Origin: a virus
Taxonomy: Duplodnaviria > Heunggongvirae > Uroviricota > Caudoviricetes
Direction: 5' to 3' (one strand)
Virus record (IMG/VR): IMGVR_UViG_2574180220_000001
Length of the DNA stretch: 15,630 nt
Part shown: in pieces, positions 1,324 through 15,630 of the stretch
Position numbering within the stretch: position 1 is the first letter of the stretch
How the letters are laid out: each line of letters opens with the position of its first letter
Notes under the pieces: model-generated
What the model was told of the DNA's origin: nothing
Databases searched by the model: none
The model's input: only the letters and a program-made list of their open reading frames with translations
Made by a program: the position numbers and the translations under genes

Positions 1324-1418
1324 GAAGCCTGCTTTTTTATACTAAGTTGGCATTATAAAAAAGCATTGCTTATCAATTTGTTGCAACGAACAGGTCACTA
1401 TCAGTCAAAATAAAATCA
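1324..1418. other. Prophage attL (B-O-P'): lambda core GCTTTTTTATACTAA at 1331-1345 followed by the P' arm with Int arm-type sites and an IHF site
   Basis: Seen directly: 15-bp lambda att core, then GTTGGCATTATAAAAAAGCATTGCTTATCAATTTGTTGCAACGAACAGGTCACTATCAGTCAAAATAAAATCATTAT, matching the lambda P' arm; it abuts the 3' end of int. Confidence 0.9.
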
Positions 1419-2489
1419 TTATTTGATTTCAATTTTGTCCCACTCCCTGCCTCTGTCATCACGATACTGTGATGCCATGGTGTCCGACTTATGCCCGAGA
1501 AGATGTTGAGCAAACTTATCGCTTATCTGCTTCTCATAGAGTCTTGCAGACAAACTGCGCAACTCGTGAAAGGTAGGCGGACCCCCTTCGAAGGAAAGAC
1601 CTGATGCTTTTCGTGCGCGCATAAAATACCTTGATACTGTGCCGGATGAAAGCGGTTCGCGACGAGTAGATGCAATTATGGTTTCTCCGCCAAGAATCTC
1701 TTTGCATTTATCAAGTGTTTCCTTCATTGATATTCCGAGAGCATCAACATGCAATGCTGTTGGGATGGCAATTTTTACGCCTGTTTTGCTTTGCTCGACA
1801 TAAAGATATCCATCTACGATATCAGACCACTTCATTTCGCATAAATCACCAACTCGCTGCCCGGTAACAACAGCCAGTTCCATTGCAAGTCTAAGCCAAC
1901 ATGGTGATGATTCTGCTGCTTGATAAATTTTCAGGTATTCGTCAGCCGTAAGTCTTGATCTCCTTACCTCTGATTTTGCAGCGCGAGTGGCTGCGACCGG
2001 GTTTGTTGTTATATGGCCTTCAGCTATAGCCTCTCGGAATGCATCGCTCAGTGTTGATCTGATTAACTTGGCTGATGCCGCCTTGCCCTCGTCTATGTAT
2101 CCATTGAGCATTGCCGCAATTTCTTTTGTGGTGATGTCTTCAAGTGGAGCATCAGGCAGACCCCTCCTTATTGCTTTAATTTTGCTCATGTAATTTATGA
2201 GTGTCTTCTGCTTGATTCCTCTGCTGGCCAGGATTTTTTCGTAGCGATCAAGCCATGAATGTAACGTAACGGAATTATCACTGTTGATTCTCGCTGTCAG
2301 AGGCTTGTGTTTGTGTCCTGAAAATAACTCAATGTTGGCCTGTATAGCTTCAGTGATTGCGATTCGCCTGTCTCGGCCTAATCCAAACTCTTTACCCGTC
2401 CTTGGGTCCCTGTAGCAGTAATATCCATTGTTTCTTATATAAAGGTTAGGGGGTAAATCCCGGCGCTCATGACTTCGCCTTCTTCCCAT
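1419..2489 (-). CDS. int: Lambda-type tyrosine integrase Int
   Basis: 356-aa ORF (MGRRRSHERRDLPPNLYIRNNGYYCYRDPRTGKEF...) essentially as I recall lambda Int; 3' end adjacent to attL and 5' end overlapping xis, as in lambda. Confidence 0.97.
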   Translation of the reverse strand: MGRRRSHERRDLPPNLYIRNNGYYCYRDPRTGKEFGLGRDRRIAITEAIQANIELFSGHKHKPLTARINSDNSVTLHSWLDRYEKILASRGIKQKTLINYMSKIKAIRRGLPDAPLEDITTKEIAAMLNGYIDEGKAASAKLIRSTLSDAFREAIAEGHITTNPVAATRAAKSEVRRSRLTADEYLKIYQAAESSPCWLRLAMELAVVTGQRVGDLCEMKWSDIVDGYLYVEQSKTGVKIAIPTALHVDALGISMKETLDKCKEILGGETIIASTRREPLSSGTVSRYFMRARKASGLSFEGGPPTFHELRSLSARLYEKQISDKFAQHLLGHKSDTMASQYRDDRGREWDKIEIK

Positions 2490-6097: not shown

Positions 6098-7180
6098 TTA
6101 GAACTGGTAAACCATACCTACAGCAACGATATCATCGGTAGCAACGCCAGATGCTTTCGTGAAATCGCTCTTATCAATCAGGTTGATTTTGTAGTCAACA
6201 AAAGTGGACATATTTTTGTTGAAGTAATAGGTTGCACCTACATCAACATATTCAACCAGGTCCTGATCACCCCAAACACCCAAGTCTTTTCCTTTAGAAT
6301 GCAGGTAAGCAACGGATGGACGCAGGCCGAAGTCGAACTGATATTGTGCAACAGCTTCGAAGTTTTGTGCTTTGTTGGCAATATGGTTATTACCAAAAAC
6401 AGTCATGTTCTGGGTTTCAGAATAGGTGGTAGCCAGATAGATGTTGTTCGCATCATATTTCAGACCAGCTGCCCATACTTCAGCATTTTGACCAGAAGCA
6501 TTCAGACCGTTGTTACCGTAGATAACCTGATTATTAGTGCGATCAGATTTAGCATAGGTTGCACCCACGCCGAATCCTTCATACTCATAAGTAGTTGAGA
6601 AACCGAAACCATCGCCATTAGCTTCAGTTACTTCATTTCGGTCATTTTTGCCCTGATACTGAGCTGCAAAGTTCAGGCCATCAACCAGACCAAAGAAGTC
6701 GTTGTTACGATAAGTTGCAACACCTGTGGTGCGACCAGTCATGAATACATCTGTTTGGGTCCAGGTATCGCCACCGAATTCTGGCAGAACGTCGGTCCAT
6801 GCACCGATGTCGTATGCTACACCGTAGTTACGGCCGTAATCGATGGAGCCGTAGTCACCGAATTTCAGGCCAGCGAAGGCAAGACGGGTTTTATCTTTGG
6901 AGGAACCTTGAGATTCAGCGCGGTTGCCTTTGAATTCATATTCCCACTGACCGAAACCAGTCAGTTGATCGTTGATTTGGGTTTCACCTTTGAAGCCAAG
7001 ACGGGCATAAGTAGTATCACCATCATCTGCATCATTAGAGGAGAAGTAGTGCTTGGCATTAACTTTCCCGTACAGATCCAGCTTGTTACTGTCTTTATTA
7101 TAAATTTCAGCTGCCTGAGCAGACATCGCCATCAGTACTGATGCAGCTACAGCAGAAATTGCCACTGTTAATTTTTTCAT
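6098..7180 (-). CDS. nmpC: OmpC-family general porin, prophage-encoded NmpC/Lc-like, intact (360 aa)
   Basis: Signal peptide [23 protein letters not shown], porin motifs ([57 protein letters not shown]), C-terminal VYQF. Position between Q and the holin matches the lc/nmpC moron of PA-2/DLP12. Confidence 0.85.
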
Positions 7181-11205: not shown

Positions 11206-11775
11206 ATGGAAGTCAACAAAAAGCAGCTGGCTGACATTTTCGGTGCGAGTATCCGTACCATTCAGAACTGGCAGGAACAGGGAATGCCCGTTCTGCGAGG
11301 CGGTGGCAAGGGTAATGAGGTGCTTTATGACTCTGCCGCCGTCATAAAATGGTATGCCGAAAGGGATGCTGAAATTGAGAACGAAAAGCTGCGCCGGGAG
11401 GTTGAAGAACTGCGGCAGGCCAGCGAGGCAGATCTCCAGCCAGGGACTATTGAGTACGAACGCCATCGACTTACGCGTGCGCAGGCCGACGCACAGGAAC
11501 TGAAGAATGCCAGAGACTCCGCTGAAGTGGTGGAAACCGCATTCTGTACTTTCGTGTTGTCGCGGATCGCAGGTGAAATTGCCAGTATTCTCGACGGGAT
11601 CCCCCTGTCGGTGCAGCGGCGTTTTCCGGAACTGGAAAACCGACATGTTGATTTCCTGAAACGGGATATCATCAAAGCCATGAACAAAGCAGCCGCGCTG
11701 GATGAACTGATAACGGGGCTAAAGCGCAGGCGCTCACTATCAACAAGGATGAGGTTAACTCAACTGTTGATTTAA
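11206..11775 (+). CDS. nu1: Terminase small subunit Nu1 with its C-terminus replaced (first ~170 aa lambda-like, last ~19 aa unrelated)
   Basis: MEVNKKQLADIFGASIRTIQNWQEQGMPVLRGGGKGNEVLYDSAAVIKWY... matches lambda Nu1 up to ...KAMNKAAALDELI, then diverges (TGLKRRRSLSTRMRLTQLLI); no terminase large subunit gene follows. Confidence 0.85.
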   Translation: MEVNKKQLADIFGASIRTIQNWQEQGMPVLRGGGKGNEVLYDSAAVIKWYAERDAEIENEKLRREVEELRQASEADLQPGTIEYERHRLTRAQADAQELKNARDSAEVVETAFCTFVLSRIAGEIASILDGIPLSVQRRFPELENRHVDFLKRDIIKAMNKAAALDELITGLKRRRSLSTRMRLTQLLI

Positions 11776-12428
11776 CTCTTACAAAACAAACAGGGACTGG
11801 AAATCGTTTTGTTTTACAGAACTTAGGTAATACAGAACTATCATTTGCCGCAAAAGTATGGGGATCAAGTGATCGACAAAACGTTTTTGAGGTTGGAACG
11901 TCTGCTGCGTATCTGTTTTATGCGCAAAAAACGTCAGCAGGCCAGTTGTTTGATGTAAATGGCGCTATTAATTGCACAACGCTGAATCAGTCATCAGACC
12001 GCGACCTTAAAGACGATATTCTCGTTATCAGCGACGCGACGAAAGCAATCCGTAAAATGAACGGATACACCTACACGCTCAGGGAAAACGGGATGCCTTA
12101 TGCTGGCGTTATTGCACAGGAAGTAATGGAGGCGATACCAGAAGCTGTGGGATCGTTTACTCATTACGGTGAAGAGTTGCAGGGACCAACGGTTGACGGC
12201 AATGAATTACGTGAAGAAACACGTTATCTGAATGTTGACTACGCCGCCGTGACGGGGTTACTTGTTCAGGTCGCCCGTGAAACAGATGGTCGCGTTACCG
12301 CGCTGGAAGAGGAAAACATAACGCTACGTAAAAATCTGGCAACAGCAGGCACCCGGATCAGCACTCTGGAAAATCAGGTAAGCGAACTGGTTGCACTTGT
12401 CCGGCAGTTAACAGGAAGCGAACATTGA
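11706..12428 (+). pseudogene. C-terminal fragment of a tail fibre / tailspike gene carrying a peptidase S74-type intramolecular chaperone domain; no own start at the junction
   Basis: Frame is open from the nu1 junction; contains the autoproteolysis-type motif SSDRDLKDDI followed by NGYTYTLRENGMPYAGVIAQEVMEAIPEAV and a C-terminal coiled-coil-like segment. Track reports only the Met-initiated part, 11946..12428. Confidence 0.6.
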
Positions 12429-12473
12429 TATCCTTCAAGCCCTGAAGGAGGCTGTTCCCGGTACGTTCAGACT

Positions 12474-12608
12474 GTTGTTGGGCTGGAGATCGCAACGGAG
12501 GAAGAAAACTCGTTGCTGGAAGCCTGGAAAAAGTATCGGGTGTTGCTGAACCGTGTTAATACAACAACTGCACCGGATATTGAATGGCCAGTAGCACCTA
12601 TAGGGTAA
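12474..12608 (+). pseudogene. 3' fragment of a tail-fibre assembly gene (Tfa-like C-terminus), no start codon
   Basis: Hand-translated: ...[41 protein letters not shown], resembling the conserved Tfa C-terminus (lambda Tfa ends ...[26 protein letters not shown]... as I recall); same frame as the preceding ORF, directly after its stop. Confidence 0.6.
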
Positions 12609-12692
12609 ATTCGTAATGATTACCTAAATACGTTATTCTTTTGTTCAAAAAGTGATTTTGCTATAGGTAGGGAGTATGTTCTTGGATTAAGA

Positions 12693-12724
12693 ATAAAAAA
12701 TCGCCATGAAAGAGCTTCATGGCG
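12693..12724 (-). terminator. Hairpin with U-tract on the minus strand (CGCCAUGAA-loop-UUCAUGGCG then AUUUUUU)
   Basis: Seen in sequence: 9-bp stem followed by a T-run on the minus strand, inside the AT-rich non-coding region; no obvious upstream minus-strand gene. Confidence 0.3.
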
Positions 12725-13467
12725 AGTACATAAACGTACAAAATGTGATGAAAGTAGAGTGGCGTAAGCCACTATATTAAGATATGACAATAGCGAAGAA
12801 AAGTAAATAACATTTTATGGACGTTTAATTGTTAATTATAAAAACTAGAGTGCCCGATATTGTTTATCTTGCTTTAAAATAATGTACTCAAACCAAATTT
12901 TTGAGCTAAAAGCTCAAATAATATAAATGCAATGATAATGTTTAATAAGACAATTAGCTTGCTTTGTATTTTCATTTCGGAATACTGTTAAGTAACTTTG
13001 ATGACCCTAACAATAGATCGGAATTTTCTTAGGGTCAATGGTCAATGTTTTTGCTTGCAAAGCAAATGTTTTGGTGGTTATAAGTTGTCTTAATATAGTC
13101 ACGCATGCAACTTGTTCCATGCGGAGATTAAAGATTGGAATATAACGCGAAGATGGAATTAAATTACATTTGCAATAACCAATTTATTATTACTCAATAA
13201 TTACCGATATTATTATTGTAAATTAATCATTAGAGTGCAAAAAGAAATGTAACGGCAAAATAAGAGGACGATAGCTGAGAAAAAAGCGTGCTTTCCCAAT
13301 CTGGGGCAAATCACGTCTGAATGACACCTGAAAACAGGTGGTAGCCTCAAGAAGGCTTGGAATATTCTTCTTTAATGTTATGTAATTCATTGATTTTTCG
13401 TGTACGATTTTAAGACATTTATTCCAAGAAAAATTTTTAACTCTTTGATTTTTCGACTCTGTATCAT

Positions 13468-13529
13468 CGGTCTCGAAAACCGGAGTAGGGGCAACTCTAC
13501 CGGGGGTTCAAATCCCCCTCTCTCCGCCA
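13468..13529 (+). tRNA. Partial tRNA-Ser (CGA anticodon; serU-like) 3' portion only (anticodon arm, variable arm, T-arm, acceptor 3' strand, CCA); 5' part absent
   Basis: GGTCTCGAAAACCGGAGTAGGGGCAACTCTACCGGGGGTTCAAATCCCCCTCTCTCCGCCA matches the 3' two-thirds of E. coli tRNA-Ser(CGA) as I recall it; upstream sequence cannot pair to form the acceptor or D arms. Confidence 0.7.
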
Positions 13530-14104
13530 CTTTATCAATGACTTATCTCCCGACTTCCCGCCTTGCTTTTCCTAAACAGAACAATCGTAGAATATTCTTG
13601 AAGGGTTAGATCGTCACTGTTTTCTGTTCGATACTGTGACATTCAGCACTTGATTCGCTATGGATCTGACAGGAAGGTTTTGAGCGAAAATTTGCAGTTA
13701 TTCAGTTGTTTTCTTATCGGTCACCATTATTCTTTTAGACATTGATCCTACAAAGCTGCCGCAAAGTTGGTGGTGGGAACTGAAGTTGCGTAGAGAAGGG
13801 GTCAATACCCGGAGGCAAACATGGGCTGGCAAAAGTGTAGCGGTATTAGGCGCAGCTATTTAGCCTAGTTATGTTTTATGAAAACTTGATATCATATAAG
13901 TGTCTTACTTATTGGCTGTAAATAAGTTTTTCCTAAGGAATTGTTTCTTGAGTATCATTTGTAACTGTAACGGAATTTATAATCCTTTGCTTTATTGTTA
14001 CGGTATTTTTTATCACACCCTATTTTTTATGTGGTTTTTTATACTGAAGTTTGGCAAAGTGAACTTTATATGCATATACTTCATCCTGGTTTCAGTTAAG
14101 TTGG

Positions 14105-14857
14105 GTGGATGATATGGCAACTACATGTTCAGTTATATTGATTTTGGAGTCCTTTGATGTTTATTTCGGAAAAGAGAGTGTGTTTCTGGAGAGAGGTTCA
14201 TCTGTACTTGTCGACTCTAGCTCTAGAGATTTTTTCCTGACATATCCTGAAAGAGTGATAGTGGCGGATTTTGGCGCTGAGTTTATTAGTCGCTATTTGA
14301 AAGCTAATAACTTAAGGGATATTTCTGATTGTAGGGAATATCCATCTTATTTAAAAATAAACTTTGCTGACTTCAGTTTAATTAAAGGATTAATTAGTTG
14401 GGCTAATCACTGTGCTGAATACATAGAAATTTTTGATGAGTCTATTGCTTTTACATGTCTCTCTGCATTTTCTTCTGAAAAACAATTTGGAGTATTTCTG
14501 TTTGAATGTTTGAAAAGCACAGGGGCTAAAGTTAAAACGATTATTCATACGGATTTATCTGCACCATGGCGTCTTAAGGATATATCATCAAGATTATATC
14601 TCAGCGAAAGTTTACTAAAGAGGAAATTGAAAGAAGAGGGGGTATCATTCAGTAAGATCATACTTGATGAGAGGATGCAAATGGCTGAATATTTACTCAG
14701 CACTCGTTGTTATCCTATTAGTAAAGTAGCTAAGGTCTGTGGTTATGCCAGTGTTTCATACTTTACTTATGTATTTAGACGTTATTTTGGTGTTTCTCCA
14801 AGTCAATACTCTCAGAGCAGTTCAGAAAGTAAAATTCTTACTCACCAGGGAATCTGA
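14105..14857 (+). CDS. AraC/XylS-family transcriptional regulator (YdeO/AppY/GadX-like), 250 aa
   Basis: C-terminal double helix-turn-helix region (PWRLKDISSRLYLSESLLKRKLKEEGVSFSKIILDERMQMAEYLL...VAKVCGYASVSYFTYVFRRYFGVSPSQY) typical of AraC family; AT-rich codon usage consistent with horizontally acquired DNA. Confidence 0.85.
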   Translation: MDDMATTCSVILILESFDVYFGKESVFLERGSSVLVDSSSRDFFLTYPERVIVADFGAEFISRYLKANNLRDISDCREYPSYLKINFADFSLIKGLISWANHCAEYIEIFDESIAFTCLSAFSSEKQFGVFLFECLKSTGAKVKTIIHTDLSAPWRLKDISSRLYLSESLLKRKLKEEGVSFSKIILDERMQMAEYLLSTRCYPISKVAKVCGYASVSYFTYVFRRYFGVSPSQYSQSSSESKILTHQGI

Positions 14858-15351
14858 TCATTGTTCTTGCCCCCTTATTTCCAGACAGGGGGTGTATCTT
14901 AAGTTAACGTTACCCGCTGACGTCGATATTCTCGCGGAGAGCGATAACCCAACGCACTGTGCGGATGGTTTTCATTGTAATGTTCGATCGCCACTGCAAG
15001 ATTATGCAATGCCGTTCTTACATTCGGTTTCGGCATGAACGCGATGTAGTCTTCCTTCATCGTTTTCACGAACCTTTCTGCCATTCCATTACTCTGAGGA
15101 CTGCTGATTGCCGTTGTGCAGGGCTCCAGATTCAACTCTCTGGCGAACTGCCATGTTTCATGCGCTCTATACGCTGAACCGTTATCTGTCAGCCACTGGA
15201 TGGACTGTTCCGGTACTTTATCGCCAAAGCGTTTTTCTATCGCTCCTAACATGACATCCTGCACTGTCGCTTTATCGTAACCTCCCGTGCTTGCGGCCCA
15301 GTCTATGGCTTCACGATCGCAACAGTCCAGGGCGAACGTAACACGCAGTTT
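14858..15351 (-). mobile_element. Truncated IS2-like element (IS3 family): terminal inverted repeat plus the 3' half of orfB
   Basis: Terminal sequence TTGCCCCCTTATTTCCAGACA resembles the IS2 end; minus-strand ORF fragment [24 protein letters not shown]...[50 protein letters not shown]...[14 protein letters not shown] resembles the IS2 OrfB integrase core. The 5' part is cut off at about 15351. Confidence 0.7.
14899..15351 (-). pseudogene. IS3-family (IS2-like) transposase OrfB, C-terminal fragment
   Basis: DDE/rve integrase-core motifs ([25 protein letters not shown]); the frame is open upstream of the reported Met but lacks the N-terminal half. Confidence 0.7.
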
Positions 15352-15630
15352 TGAATCGCCACGGGTTTAACAGACACCTCAGAGTCATTTAAGATGGCTT
15401 AAAGAGAGGTGCCCATGAGCGGTAAGCGTTATCCCGAAGAGTTTAAAACTGAAGCAGTCAAACAGGTTGTTGATCGCGGTTATTCTGTTGCCAGCGTTGC
15501 AACACGTCTCGATATCACCACCCACAGCCTTTATGCCTGGATAAAGAAGTACGGTCCGGATTACTCCACTTTTTCATCAAGCCAATCCGCCCACCACTGC
15601 ATCATTTCTCTGCGCTTATCGAAATACTGA
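15352..15630 (+). mobile_element. Left end of a second IS3-family element (IR beginning TGAATCGCCACGGG) with orfA; continues beyond the window
   Basis: IR-like terminus starting with TGA about 63 bp upstream of an orfA-type ORF; inserted into the IS2-like orfB. Family assignment by general resemblance only. Confidence 0.6.
15415..15630 (+). CDS. IS3-family transposase OrfA (HTH protein), possibly truncated or frameshifted at its C-terminus
   Basis: MSGKRYPEEFKTEAVKQVVDRGYSVASVATRLDITTHSLYAWIKKYGPD... is a typical IS3-family OrfA N-terminus with a helix-turn-helix; ATG at 15415 preceded by AGAGAGG. The tail (YSTFSSSQSAHHCIISLRLSKY) lacks the usual leucine-zipper-like segment. Confidence 0.6.
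   Translation: MSGKRYPEEFKTEAVKQVVDRGYSVASVATRLDITTHSLYAWIKKYGPDYSTFSSSQSAHHCIISLRLSKY

Follow-up and report, generated by a model that had tools for sequence, protein, structure and literature searches.

The 1.5 kb between the remnant of a tail-fibre-assembly (tfa) gene and an AraC-family regulator gene raises the question of what a seemingly empty stretch of phage DNA is made of and how it was put together. The stretch, positions 12609-14104, belongs to a window of 15,630 nucleotides that was analysed as a whole (IMG/VR record IMGVR_UViG_2574180220_000001, Caudoviricetes). It starts directly 3' of the stop codon of the truncated tfa gene (12477-12608, plus strand; annotation transferred from an APEC O78 RefSeq record, L001 14078-14209, 99.9% identical) and ends at the AraC-family gene (14114-14857, plus strand). 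The stretch is AT-rich as first described, with a GC content of 0.347 (34.7%) against 0.436 across the whole window and mostly 26-35% per block. It is a mosaic of four pieces in the left half of the non-essential b (accessory) region of a prophage: a putative minus-strand moron (promoter, 33-aa YncL-like ORF, terminator) that is oriented against the late genes; what would be a fossil attR (P arm, serU 3' part, host spacer) from an ancestor that integrated at serU; a 56-bp end of an IS630-family element; and about 250 bp that would be promoter and leader of the AraC gene, a probable PatE orthologue. The boundaries of the pieces and the native context of each were observed directly, and we give the mosaic and fossil-attR reading, taken as one whole, a probability of roughly 80%.

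The initial annotation had placed the stretch between a prophage remnant and the AraC gene, but both it and that gene lie inside a prophage. An exact copy of the lambda att core, GCTTTTTTATACTAA, at 1331-1345 (plus strand) is the attL that forms the prophage's left end, and the integrase gene int (1419-2489, minus strand, from the ORF list) lies 3' of this core. Window positions 1331-2445 match the attP-int segment of phage ev099 at 99.6% identity, and in a near-identical APEC O78 locus the attR core adjoins ybhB. The prophage is thus lambda-like, of the ev099/mEp332 type, residing in E. coli at the lambda site, which is flanked by ybhC and ybhB-bio, and it spans 1331 to beyond the window end, where its attR lies. 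Three phage genome records carry the same arrangement: 12483-15630 is contiguous and 99.1-99.3% identical in ev099 and in mEp332, a lambdoid phage of E. coli K-12 (PMC3442831), and 11985-15630 is contiguous and 98.3% identical in PhiR70_1. In ev099 the matching stretch sits between tfa and attP-int. The earlier suggestion of foreign DNA was borne out in that the region is AT-rich phage accessory DNA, which by its composition makes H-NS binding plausible.

The palindromes that had been listed for this stretch are all where they were said to be: CGCCATGAA/TTCATGGCG at 12702-12724, GACCCTAA-N18-TTAGGGTC at 13003-13036 followed by tandem GTCAATG, TTGCTTGCAAAGCAA at 13051-13065, CACCTG-AAAA-CAGGTG at 13325-13340 and AGCCT-CAAGA-AGGCT at 13343-13357. 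Describing it as dense in palindromes was right in direction but overstated, since the six perfect inverted repeats of at least 8 bp (nested matches that represent three distinct hairpins) exceed the 1.0 +/- 1.25 of dinucleotide shuffles, with the count equalled in 2 of 200, yet other 1.5-kb tiles of the window reach 5-6. Direct repeats exist as well, only as short families of two copies each. Another inverted repeat, CGCATGCAAC-TT-GTTCCATGCG (13102-13123, no strand assigned), lies upstream of the small-ORF promoter and is locally conserved, the zone 13089-13118 being 93% identical to the diverged GF50 copy compared to 60-77% around it. Most of the palindromes are explained by the four pieces: a terminator accounts for one, a promoter overlaps another, and an integrase att arm contains two more.

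The middle of the stretch combines phage and chromosomal DNA. At 13468-13529 (plus strand) lie the 3' 62 nt (positions 29-90) of serU, which encodes tRNA-Ser(CGA); they comprise the att core and a host-derived 3' part, and are identical at 62/62 positions to serU of a K-12-like strain. Because ARAGORN detected no tRNA, we take this piece to be a fragment and no functional tRNA. It continues into 278 bp (13530-13807, plus strand) that come from the E. coli core chromosome, where they begin the spacer between serU and yodB. Of 5426 E. coli genomes, about 5400 contain a match of ~96% to a 273-bp part of it (13535-13807), and in the copies inspected, including a prophage-free K-12-like strain, this segment lies directly 3' of serU. 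Homology to the native serU-yodB locus ends at the TA at 13806-13807.

On the other side of the tRNA fragment, 13273-13467 (plus strand) forms the P arm of the fossil attR for a serU-specific integrase. It contains the CACCTG/CAGGTG and AGCCT/AGGCT hairpins along with two predicted arm-type sites, CTTGGAATA, at 13356-13364 (+) and 13420-13428 (-), and the block is common to otherwise different prophage ends (loci L005 and L007 and phage SerU-LTIIb). No copy of CTTGGAATA occurs elsewhere in the 15.6-kb window. In the P' arm of the STEC384 serU prophage, three copies of TTGGAAT lie immediately past the complete serU gene, where they overlap int at its 3' end. The CTTGGAATA/TTGGAAT motif is thus confined to P and P' arms and is a candidate arm-type integrase site.

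STEC384 also displays the pieces in native order: serU, int, a complete lambdoid prophage, tfa, DNA equivalent to window 12466-13807 (97.8%), and yodB. The serU junction in our prophage is an attR rather than an attP, as the variable arm of the fragment is of host type (GTAGGG/CTCTAC; the phage-supplied copy at the STEC384 attL has GTGGGG/CTCCAC) and host flank follows. It has a host-identical tRNA 3' part, the host's downstream flank, and arm-type sites of which further copies are present in the opposite arm. Because the junction is internal and the prophage occupies the lambda site, where its att core and int are both of lambda type, this attR is a fossil and no longer the working one. Prophage ends in E. 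coli K-12 are known to carry tRNA-fragment att pseudogenes such as pauD, ptwF and pawZ. These likewise have the tRNA 3' part duplicated at the distal end of the element beside the former host flank, whereas the serU fragment described here lies inside a prophage at another locus, travels with the phage, and marks no prophage-chromosome junction.

Several open reading frames in this part of the stretch were rejected. A 69-aa ORF (13400-13609) and minus-strand ORFs of 47 and 55 aa read across or beside the tRNA fragment, and the database "proteins" of 79-94 aa in the tRNA-fragment cluster are antisense serU translations called at contig ends. A 70-aa ORF at 13900-14112 had no family match in NCBIfam, Pfam or PHROGs and was absent from the protein collection.

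The host spacer runs into about 56 bp (13808-13863, no strand assigned) that are 98.2% identical to annotated IS630-family ends in many genomes. Only these last ~56 bp of the element are present, and since the IS end is fused internally to the host spacer, the joint is one of deletion or illegitimate recombination. These observations suggest how the region was assembled. An ancestor of the phage would have lived in the tRNA-Ser gene serU, leaving as relics the P arm, the crossover region in the anticodon stem-loop, the host-derived serU 3' part and the 278 bp of host DNA. The host DNA would most likely have been gained when the ancestor excised imprecisely, in the manner of lambda-bio transducing phages, a capture route that we favour with moderate confidence. 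The phage would later have switched to a lambda-type integrase and attachment site, and the IS630 end would mark a joint formed afterwards by deletion or illegitimate recombination; we infer that the events took place in this order.

Imprecise excision predicts that tfa, b region, P arm, core and spacer should be collinear with a native serU prophage end, and they are, over 1.34 kb. Host DNA adjoining att is carried in the genomes of ev099, mEp332 and PhiR70_1, where the segment is placed like a lambda-bio-type substitution, between the b region and att-int. The prophage lacks int and xis of the serU type and has a lambda-type module, but the original joint has been overwritten by scars of IS630 and IS2/IS3. 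These IS630- and IS2/IS3-family fragments flank the patE gene and could also be read as traces of a different history, in which chromosomal rearrangement, homologous exchange between prophages or IS transposition brought in the serU fragment and spacer. The 340 bp of host-identical DNA would be a substrate for homologous recombination, a swap with a resident serU prophage could have imported attR together with the spacer, and one core and spacer is found with two P arms, each of which is also native at serU. The collinearity and the position of the segment in the phage records nevertheless argue against such a history, and we consider it unlikely.

The O157 copy of the module made up of core, spacer, IS630 end and patE has another P arm attached, and the history of the module therefore includes more than one event.

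Compared to lambda bio and gal transducing phages, the region likewise carries attR-flanking host DNA with a hybrid attR composed of P arm, core and B' side, and does so between the b region and att-int. It differs in being a natural, fixed lineage and not a laboratory isolate, in retaining 278 bp of non-coding host DNA, in now using a lambda-type integration module that leaves the captured att as a fossil, and in having IS scars after the host DNA.

The rightmost piece belongs to the AraC-family gene. Its product is identical at 245 of 247 aa to the O157 protein of the Sakai-type Sp1 region. A review and a microarray table describe Z0321 as the regulator of prophage CP-933H (O-island 8) and as PatE; on this basis, together with gene context and 99% identity to the O157 gene, the gene is probably a PatE orthologue. 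Its best NCBIfam match was YdeO, below the cut-off of that family. Its closest known counterparts are the AraC-like regulators PatE, PsrA and PsrB of EHEC O157:H7 prophages, and it is located distal to the tail-fibre genes, the same position as the CP-933H regulator. The gene itself lies outside 12609-14104, and about 250 bp of the stretch belong to it.

The initial annotation had proposed binding sites for the AraC-type regulator, and one could take the whole 1.5 kb as an extended control region holding regulator operators and H-NS nucleation sites. The DNA is AT-rich, with most blocks in the range given above, promoters that are AT-rich and repressed by H-NS are the reported targets of PatE and Psr-type regulators (PMC10877973), and the best promoter-like site of the region, TTGGCA-18-TATACT at 14051-14080 (plus strand, 10/12 in the promoter scan), is just upstream of the gene. 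Homology to the O157 copy, however, begins only at 13467, and everything leftward is different DNA there; 13468-13807 is tRNA fragment and host spacer, and 13808-13863 is the IS end. Because 13864-14113 (plus strand) is the only part that travels with the gene in every context (the copies in O157, APEC and phages), at most these ~250 bp can form the control region of the regulator itself. A control region of 1.5 kb is very unlikely.

The leftmost piece was said to hold no credible protein-coding ORF, but a 33-codon ORF at 12874-12975 (minus strand, ATG at 12975) shows both codon conservation and a family match. It encodes MKIQSKLIVLLNIIIAFILFELLAQKFGLSTLF, predicted to be a YncL-like single-helix membrane peptide. 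A promoter-like site, TTGACC-17 nt-TATTGT, precedes it at 13010-13038 (minus strand, 9/12 in the promoter scan) and overlaps the GACCCTAA-N18-TTAGGGTC inverted repeat and tandem GTCAATG. In an 80%-identical copy the -35 TTGAC is retained, as are the T, A and final T of the -10, and the inverted repeat and tandem GTCAATG are perfect only within the window's own lineage. From this site, a sigma-70-like promoter would drive transcription of the peptide gene and of a ~150-nt 3' UTR, up to a strong intrinsic terminator. No recognisable Shine-Dalgarno sequence precedes the ORF (TATTCCGAAATG), whereas chromosomal yncL has AAGGTGG.

The ORF is intact in 32/32 haplotypes without an IS1 insertion; one locus (L040) seemed to share the terminator alone, an appearance caused by IS1 insertion. 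Of the codon changes that separate it from the 80%-identical copy, 8 are synonymous and 5 non-synonymous (pN/pS 0.16), a ratio matched in 0.01% of trials in which the same substitutions were placed randomly, and indels between these copies fall only outside the ORF. This signal of purifying selection comes essentially from one diverged lineage (GF50/L036) and a second at 93-95% identity. With the family match described below, the pattern suggests that the small ORF is probably a real, expressed gene.

The NCBIfam YncL model matched the ORF with E = 1.3e-5 and 25.0 bits, short of the curated cut-off of 35 bits. Two further natural variants matched at 23.5 and 22.5 bits, so that three natural variants in all gave E values of 1e-5 to 7e-5, and seven shuffled and one reversed control gave nothing at E <= 10. 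Because all eight controls were negative, the likeness to YncL is significant and sequence-specific, below equivalog level. YncL (E. coli K-12 b4598, NCBIfam NF000537) is a 31-aa stress-induced small inner-membrane protein; the ORF product is of similar length with a single hydrophobic helix, and both share M-x-x-x-S-[KR]-x-[IV]-V-L-[LI]-N-x3-A-x2-L-F-x-L-x3-[KR]-F-G, with 11/31 identities in an ungapped alignment. Ten columns are invariant between K-12 YncL and the prophage variants, all of which combine about 30 aa, one helix and the motif.

The two genes are each short and stand-alone with their own terminator. K-12 yncL lies at 1517099-1517194 between patD and ortT, whereas the ORF is prophage-borne, located after tfa in the b region, and the two loci have no DNA similarity. 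YncL localises to the membrane, which its overproduction depolarises (PMC12542507). By analogy, the prophage peptide is predicted to insert in the inner membrane and mildly depolarise it.

Of 5426 complete E. coli genomes, 828 (about 15%) carry the minus-strand module, and no annotated feature lay under the ORF match in any of 40 sampled E. coli records. A tblastn search of phage records with the peptide returned no match, for which low-complexity masking is probably responsible. Scans of IMG/VR with a peptide pattern and a terminator pattern recovered the same E. coli prophage copies and nothing else, and a scan of GTDB representatives gave a single match, in an uncultured Rubrivivax MAG, that we took as chance. 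As these pattern scans gave no credible copies beyond E. coli, there were no more distant homologues for covariation analysis.

The unit ends in an intrinsic terminator at 12701-12725 (minus strand), TTTTTTATTC, which is the CGCCATGAA/TTCATGGCG palindrome. The terminator scan found an 11-pair stem (10 perfect pairs and a closing G-U, with 5 GC), a loop of 3-5 nt and then six T. The stem is invariant across the 32 haplotypes, including the 80%-identical lineage, and the fold of 12692-12800 on the minus strand has z = -5.5. Just upstream in the transcript, a conserved 3'-UTR island at 12706-12780 (minus strand) consists of an AGUGGC-UUAC-GCCACU hairpin, a single-stranded U/A-rich stretch and the terminator; it is 93-97% identical to the diverged GF50 copy, compared to 53-80% on either side. 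A plus-strand 24-aa ORF within the island was rejected, all three of its three substitutions being non-synonymous.

An undescribed RNA-based element, which the initial annotation had put forward as the candidate novelty, is unsupported. No Rfam 15 family reached its gathering threshold in 12609-14104, and a permissive scan returned only tRNA-fragment matches and chance-level ones, such as MicC (22.8 of 90 bits, E = 1.7) and sX4 (19.1 of 70 bits). Covariation was not seen among copies that vary too little to show any. The prophage sRNA svsR, located at the 3' end of cI, is unrelated. The conserved island of 3' UTR and terminator is the sole remaining RNA lead.

A hairpin, a U/A-rich linker and a terminator make up the typical shape of a 3'-UTR-derived sRNA. 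The minus-strand 3' end (12695-12780, ~90 nt) could accordingly be an Hfq-type sRNA of this kind, with or without the peptide, and the sharp conservation of the island, its strong fold, and stem substitutions that fall in loops, at stem ends or as G-U-compatible changes are what such an RNA would show. The same island has no compensatory double changes, with only ~3 informative substitutions, no Rfam family beyond the chance-level MicC match, and a U tail that is interrupted in diverged lineages (GCGCUUUCUU), and the terminator with its upstream hairpin may be conserved simply as a terminator. We regard an sRNA as improbable and continue to read the unit as a small-peptide gene.

A short hydrophobic ORF with an antisense partner had been another suggested search, and it turned up the first half only: the YncL-like ORF with its own terminator, and no convincing plus-strand promoter and terminator pair that would serve an antisense RNA. 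As a type I toxin, the 33-aa, hydrophobic, single-helix peptide would be checked by such an RNA, and the depolarising effect of overproduced YncL (PMC12542507) would fit this role, as would a weak plus-strand promoter-like site at 12784-12813. That site scores 9/12, a level found at background frequency (6 found, 5.6 expected), a hairpin within the ORF (12900-12918) is broken in diverged copies, no known type I family was matched in NCBIfam, Pfam or PHROGs, and YncL itself is not described as a toxin of a toxin-antitoxin system. A type I toxin is a very unlikely identity for the ORF.

Like the lambda morons bor and lom, the unit is self-contained, with a predicted promoter and terminator, and follows the tail-fibre genes; its position makes it dispensable for phage growth, and its GC content of 31% is below that of neighbouring phage genes. 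Its predicted product is very small (33 aa) compared to those of bor and lom. A more speculative possibility, which we rate as rather doubtful, is that the unit is a dual-function gene, whose peptide tunes membrane potential and whose conserved 3' UTR and terminator release a trans-acting sRNA, and that the fossil attR is still recognised by integrases. If so, the unit may affect superinfection, lysis timing and the stress tolerance of lysogens, and the fossil attR, with its intact core and P arm, would be a portable landing pad or exchange point for serU-type integrases, which would explain two different P arms on one core-spacer-patE module.

As a whole, this is an ordinary kind of region; two details are modestly new, and no new class of element emerges. 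A stretch that seemed empty and AT-rich records an ordered phage history of tRNA integration, probable imprecise excision with host capture, a module switch and IS scars, and thus offers a natural example of the textbook idea that cargo beside att sites is acquired by imprecise excision. It also carries a warning that gene callers place spurious "hypothetical proteins" across a tRNA fragment. For the YncL family of small membrane proteins, the findings point to a prophage-borne paralogue that may be useful for small-protein annotation and for understanding what prophages contribute to host physiology.

The segment at 12609-14104 had been described in the initial annotation as an AT-rich stretch lying between a prophage remnant and an AraC-family gene. 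The composition was confirmed, with a GC content of 0.347 compared to 0.436 for the whole window, but the segment proved to lie inside the prophage. A lambda att core, GCTTTTTTATACTAA, is located at window position 1331 next to the integrase gene (1419-2489, minus strand), and the matching attR core in the APEC O78 locus is found ~300 bp past the right end of the window, beside ybhB-bioA, so the prophage runs from 1331 to beyond 15630. Within it, the segment comes after the tail-fibre genes, at the place of the b region in lambda. It starts where a truncated tail-fibre-assembly (tfa) gene (12477-12608) ends, directly behind the stop codon, and is limited on the right by the AraC-family gene (14114-14857), both gene positions being RefSeq annotation transferred from the 99.9%-identical APEC O78 locus.

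The same DNA is present in phage genome records. Positions 12483-15630 are found unbroken at 99.1-99.3% identity in ev099, where the segment is placed between tfa and attP-int, and in mEp332, a lambdoid phage of K-12 (PMC3442831), and 11985-15630 is 98.3% identical in PhiR70_1. These contiguous copies show that the segment travels inside phage genomes. IS3-family/IS2 transposase gene fragments that follow the AraC gene (14899-15630; partial integrase-core and transposase pseudogenes in the APEC O78 annotation) are also present in all three. The window lacks ~5.3 kb of the APEC O78 prophage at ~11707-11718 (L001 8005-13308: a terminase fragment, a tail-tip fragment, lom and most of the tail-fibre gene), and its prophage is thus a further-deleted derivative. 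Elsewhere in the prophage, a full-length match to the Rfam Lambda CIII thermoregulator element (RF01804; 4713-4771, minus strand, 88.5 bits, E = 7e-21) lies upstream of, or overlaps, the cIII gene. A porin gene annotated ompC (nmpC-like; 6098-7180, minus strand), accompanied by the DLP12-like lysis genes essD, rrrD, rzpD and bor, is a further host-interaction cargo gene.

BLAST against 5426 complete E. coli genomes and selected loci divided 12609-14113 into successive blocks with sharp boundaries. Blocks A-C (12609-13467) continue the tfa remnant, and 12466-13807 is collinear (97.8%) with the right end of a complete serU-integrated lambdoid prophage in STEC384, ordered mtfA - serU - int - ... 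- J - lom - stf - tfa - 12466-13807-like DNA - yodB. Block A alone (to 13171) also terminates a Qin-type prophage remnant beside ydfJ, and block C alone (13273-13467) is the end of several otherwise unlike prophages. Block D (13468-13529) reproduces positions 29-90 of the tRNA-Ser(CGA) gene serU (90 nt) without a mismatch, a fragment on which ARAGORN called no tRNA. Block E (13530-13807) corresponds to the beginning of the spacer between serU and yodB; 13535-13807 occurs at ~96% identity in about 5400 of the 5426 genomes, directly 3' of serU in the inspected copies, and the match to the native serU locus ends at a TA at 13806-13807. The final ~56 bp of an IS630-family element (98.2% identity) form block F1 (13808-13863), and block F2 (13864-14113) is the region upstream of the AraC gene.

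Three lines of evidence support reading the serU piece as a fossil attR. First, the attL of the STEC384 prophage (L117 13079-13168) contains a complete, functional serU whose variable arm, GTGGGG/CTCCAC, is a compensatory pair relative to the host gene and is the 3' half supplied by the phage, whereas the partial serU at its attR has the host-type arm GTAGGG/CTCTAC followed by host spacer, as do the copies in the window, ev099, PhiR70_1 and O157. Lysogens of the serU phage thus express a slightly altered tRNA-Ser. Second, CTTGGAATA occurs in the 15.6-kb window only at 13356 (+) and 13420 (-), both in block C, and the STEC384 P' arm has three TTGGAAT copies just after serU, overlapping the 3' end of int; this layout is as expected for arm-type integrase sites of the two phage arms, P and P', and the motifs are putative binding sites. 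Third, one prophage elsewhere in the chromosome carries the same P arm and the first ~18 nt of the core, then other DNA, which places the crossover within the anticodon stem-loop. As the prophage occupies the lambda site and its resident integrase is lambda-type, the serU junction is out of use here.

In strain 2014C-3057 (L007 4001-4215), the same serU-type P arm ends a prophage carrying an NleG (DUF1076) effector beside uspF-ompN; the sequence departs from serU after only ~18 nt of core, a pattern suggestive of insertion into a different or secondary target that has a short overlap in common. At window 13223-13530 (minus strand), gene callers have annotated 'hypothetical proteins' of 47-94 aa, including a cluster with 104 members and ev099 gp28; we rejected these as antisense translations of the serU fragment and P arm. 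In one RefSeq record, a neighbouring 168-nt ORF is labelled 'capsid protein'.

The order b region - P arm - core - host flank - att-int region is what imprecise excision of the lambda-bio type yields, here from serU. Such an excision would have captured the host flank, and we infer that the lambda-type integration module was acquired afterwards. A single event does not account for this history, and IS-mediated joints also acted. The core, spacer, IS630 end and AraC module are found in 545 genomes, and in O157:H7 another left arm, formed by the terminal part of a GIY-YIG gene of the Sp1/CP-933H remnant, abuts them at 13467, the core boundary; this arm is also native at serU beside yodB in strain MB15. 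Two left arms on one module indicate that the left flank was exchanged at least once, which may have occurred at the core itself or through homologous recombination in the 340 host-identical bases.

The AraC gene product shares 245 of 247 residues with the protein encoded in the O157 Sp1/CP-933H remnant. Z0321 is listed as RpoS-dependent and as the putative regulator of the O-island 8 prophage CP-933H (PMC2907692); under the name PatE, it is also described as activating acid-resistance genes (PMC10877973). From context and identity, the AraC gene is probably a PatE orthologue. Only 13864-14113 accompanies it in all contexts, and the best upstream promoter-like site is at 14051-14080 (TTGGCA-18-TATACT).

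The segment had been thought to contain no credible ORF, but we found one on the minus strand at 12874-12975, encoding the 33-aa product MKIQSKLIVLLNIIIAFILFELLAQKFGLSTLF. The product matched the NCBIfam YncL profile with 25 bits (E = 1.3e-5), short of the curated 35-bit cut-off; two natural variants matched equally well, and seven shuffled sequences and one reversed sequence gave no match at E <= 10. Ungapped, 11 of 31 residues are identical to K-12 YncL, and the remaining changes are conservative. No match was found in PHROGs or Pfam, and the ORF has no clear Shine-Dalgarno. It is intact in all 32 distinct haplotypes without an IS1 insertion among genomes, phages and IMG/VR. Relative to the diverged GF50/L036 lineage (80% identical in DNA), the ORF has 18 nucleotide differences, giving 8 synonymous and 5 conservative non-synonymous codon changes (pN/pS 0.16, a selection signal that comes mainly from this one lineage), and all indels fall outside it; random placement of the same substitutions left an intact ORF with at most 5 replacements in 0.01% of trials. 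A promoter-like site (13038-13010, TTGACC-17-TATTGT) keeps its -35 and key -10 positions in the diverged copy, and the unit closes with a strong intrinsic terminator (12725-12701). Of the 5426 genomes, 828 carry the module, and 40 of 40 sampled records annotate no feature under it. In one prophage copy, the IMG/VR record IMGVR_UViG_2563366948_000001 (L040), the sequence just upstream of the terminator is replaced by what reads as an IS1 end, so that the retrieved stretch lacks the ORF and retains the terminator alone.

An RNA element had also been proposed, but Rfam returned no family at threshold over 12609-14104, and a permissive scan gave only tRNA-fragment matches and chance-level MicC and sX4. 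Just left of 12609, a sub-threshold IS009 match (12400-12568, plus strand; 86 bits, gathering score 117) covers the tail-fibre gene end and tfa remnant, and is probably conserved tfa sequence instead of an RNA gene. The single RNA lead, a functional sRNA from the 3' UTR of the predicted small-gene transcript, is unlikely: 12706-12765 is 93-97% identical in the diverged copy compared to 53-80% on either side and folds well (z = -5.5), but changes among copies are wobble-compatible or confined to loops, and the variation is too small for covariation. The suggested search for a short hydrophobic toxin ORF with an antisense partner yielded the YncL-like ORF without such a partner, and so no support for a type I toxin-antitoxin pair.

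Every listed palindrome was present where reported. Their density is a real but small enrichment: three distinct hairpins account for six nested perfect inverted repeats of at least 8 bp, compared to a mean of 1.0 in dinucleotide shuffles (2 of 200 shuffles equal the observed six), and other 1.5-kb tiles of the window reach 5-6. Read on the minus strand, CGCCATGAA/TTCATGGCG is the small-gene terminator. GACCCTAA-N18-TTAGGGTC and the tandem GTCAATG, whose perfect form is specific to the window's lineage, overlap the small-gene promoter-like site, with the -35 inside the tandem repeat, and TTGCTTGCAAAGCAA, just upstream of that site, is not retained in the diverged copy. CACCTG-AAAA-CAGGTG and AGCCT-CAAGA-AGGCT are both in the att P arm, the latter abutting a predicted arm-type site. 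A further palindrome at 13102-13123, absent from the original list, is locally conserved.

The segment is real DNA with an ordinary explanation, and no new kind of element is needed: a small-protein gene, an integration fossil with captured host DNA, an IS scar and a gene upstream region make up a patchwork accessory region of a phage. Two aspects are modestly new, the well-preserved scar of a probable imprecise excision in phage genomes and the prophage-borne YncL-like gene, an overlooked predicted small-protein gene. Production of YncL, a small membrane protein induced by stress, depolarises the membrane sublethally and condenses the nucleoid (PMC12542507), and by analogy the prophage peptide may have a similar membrane activity.
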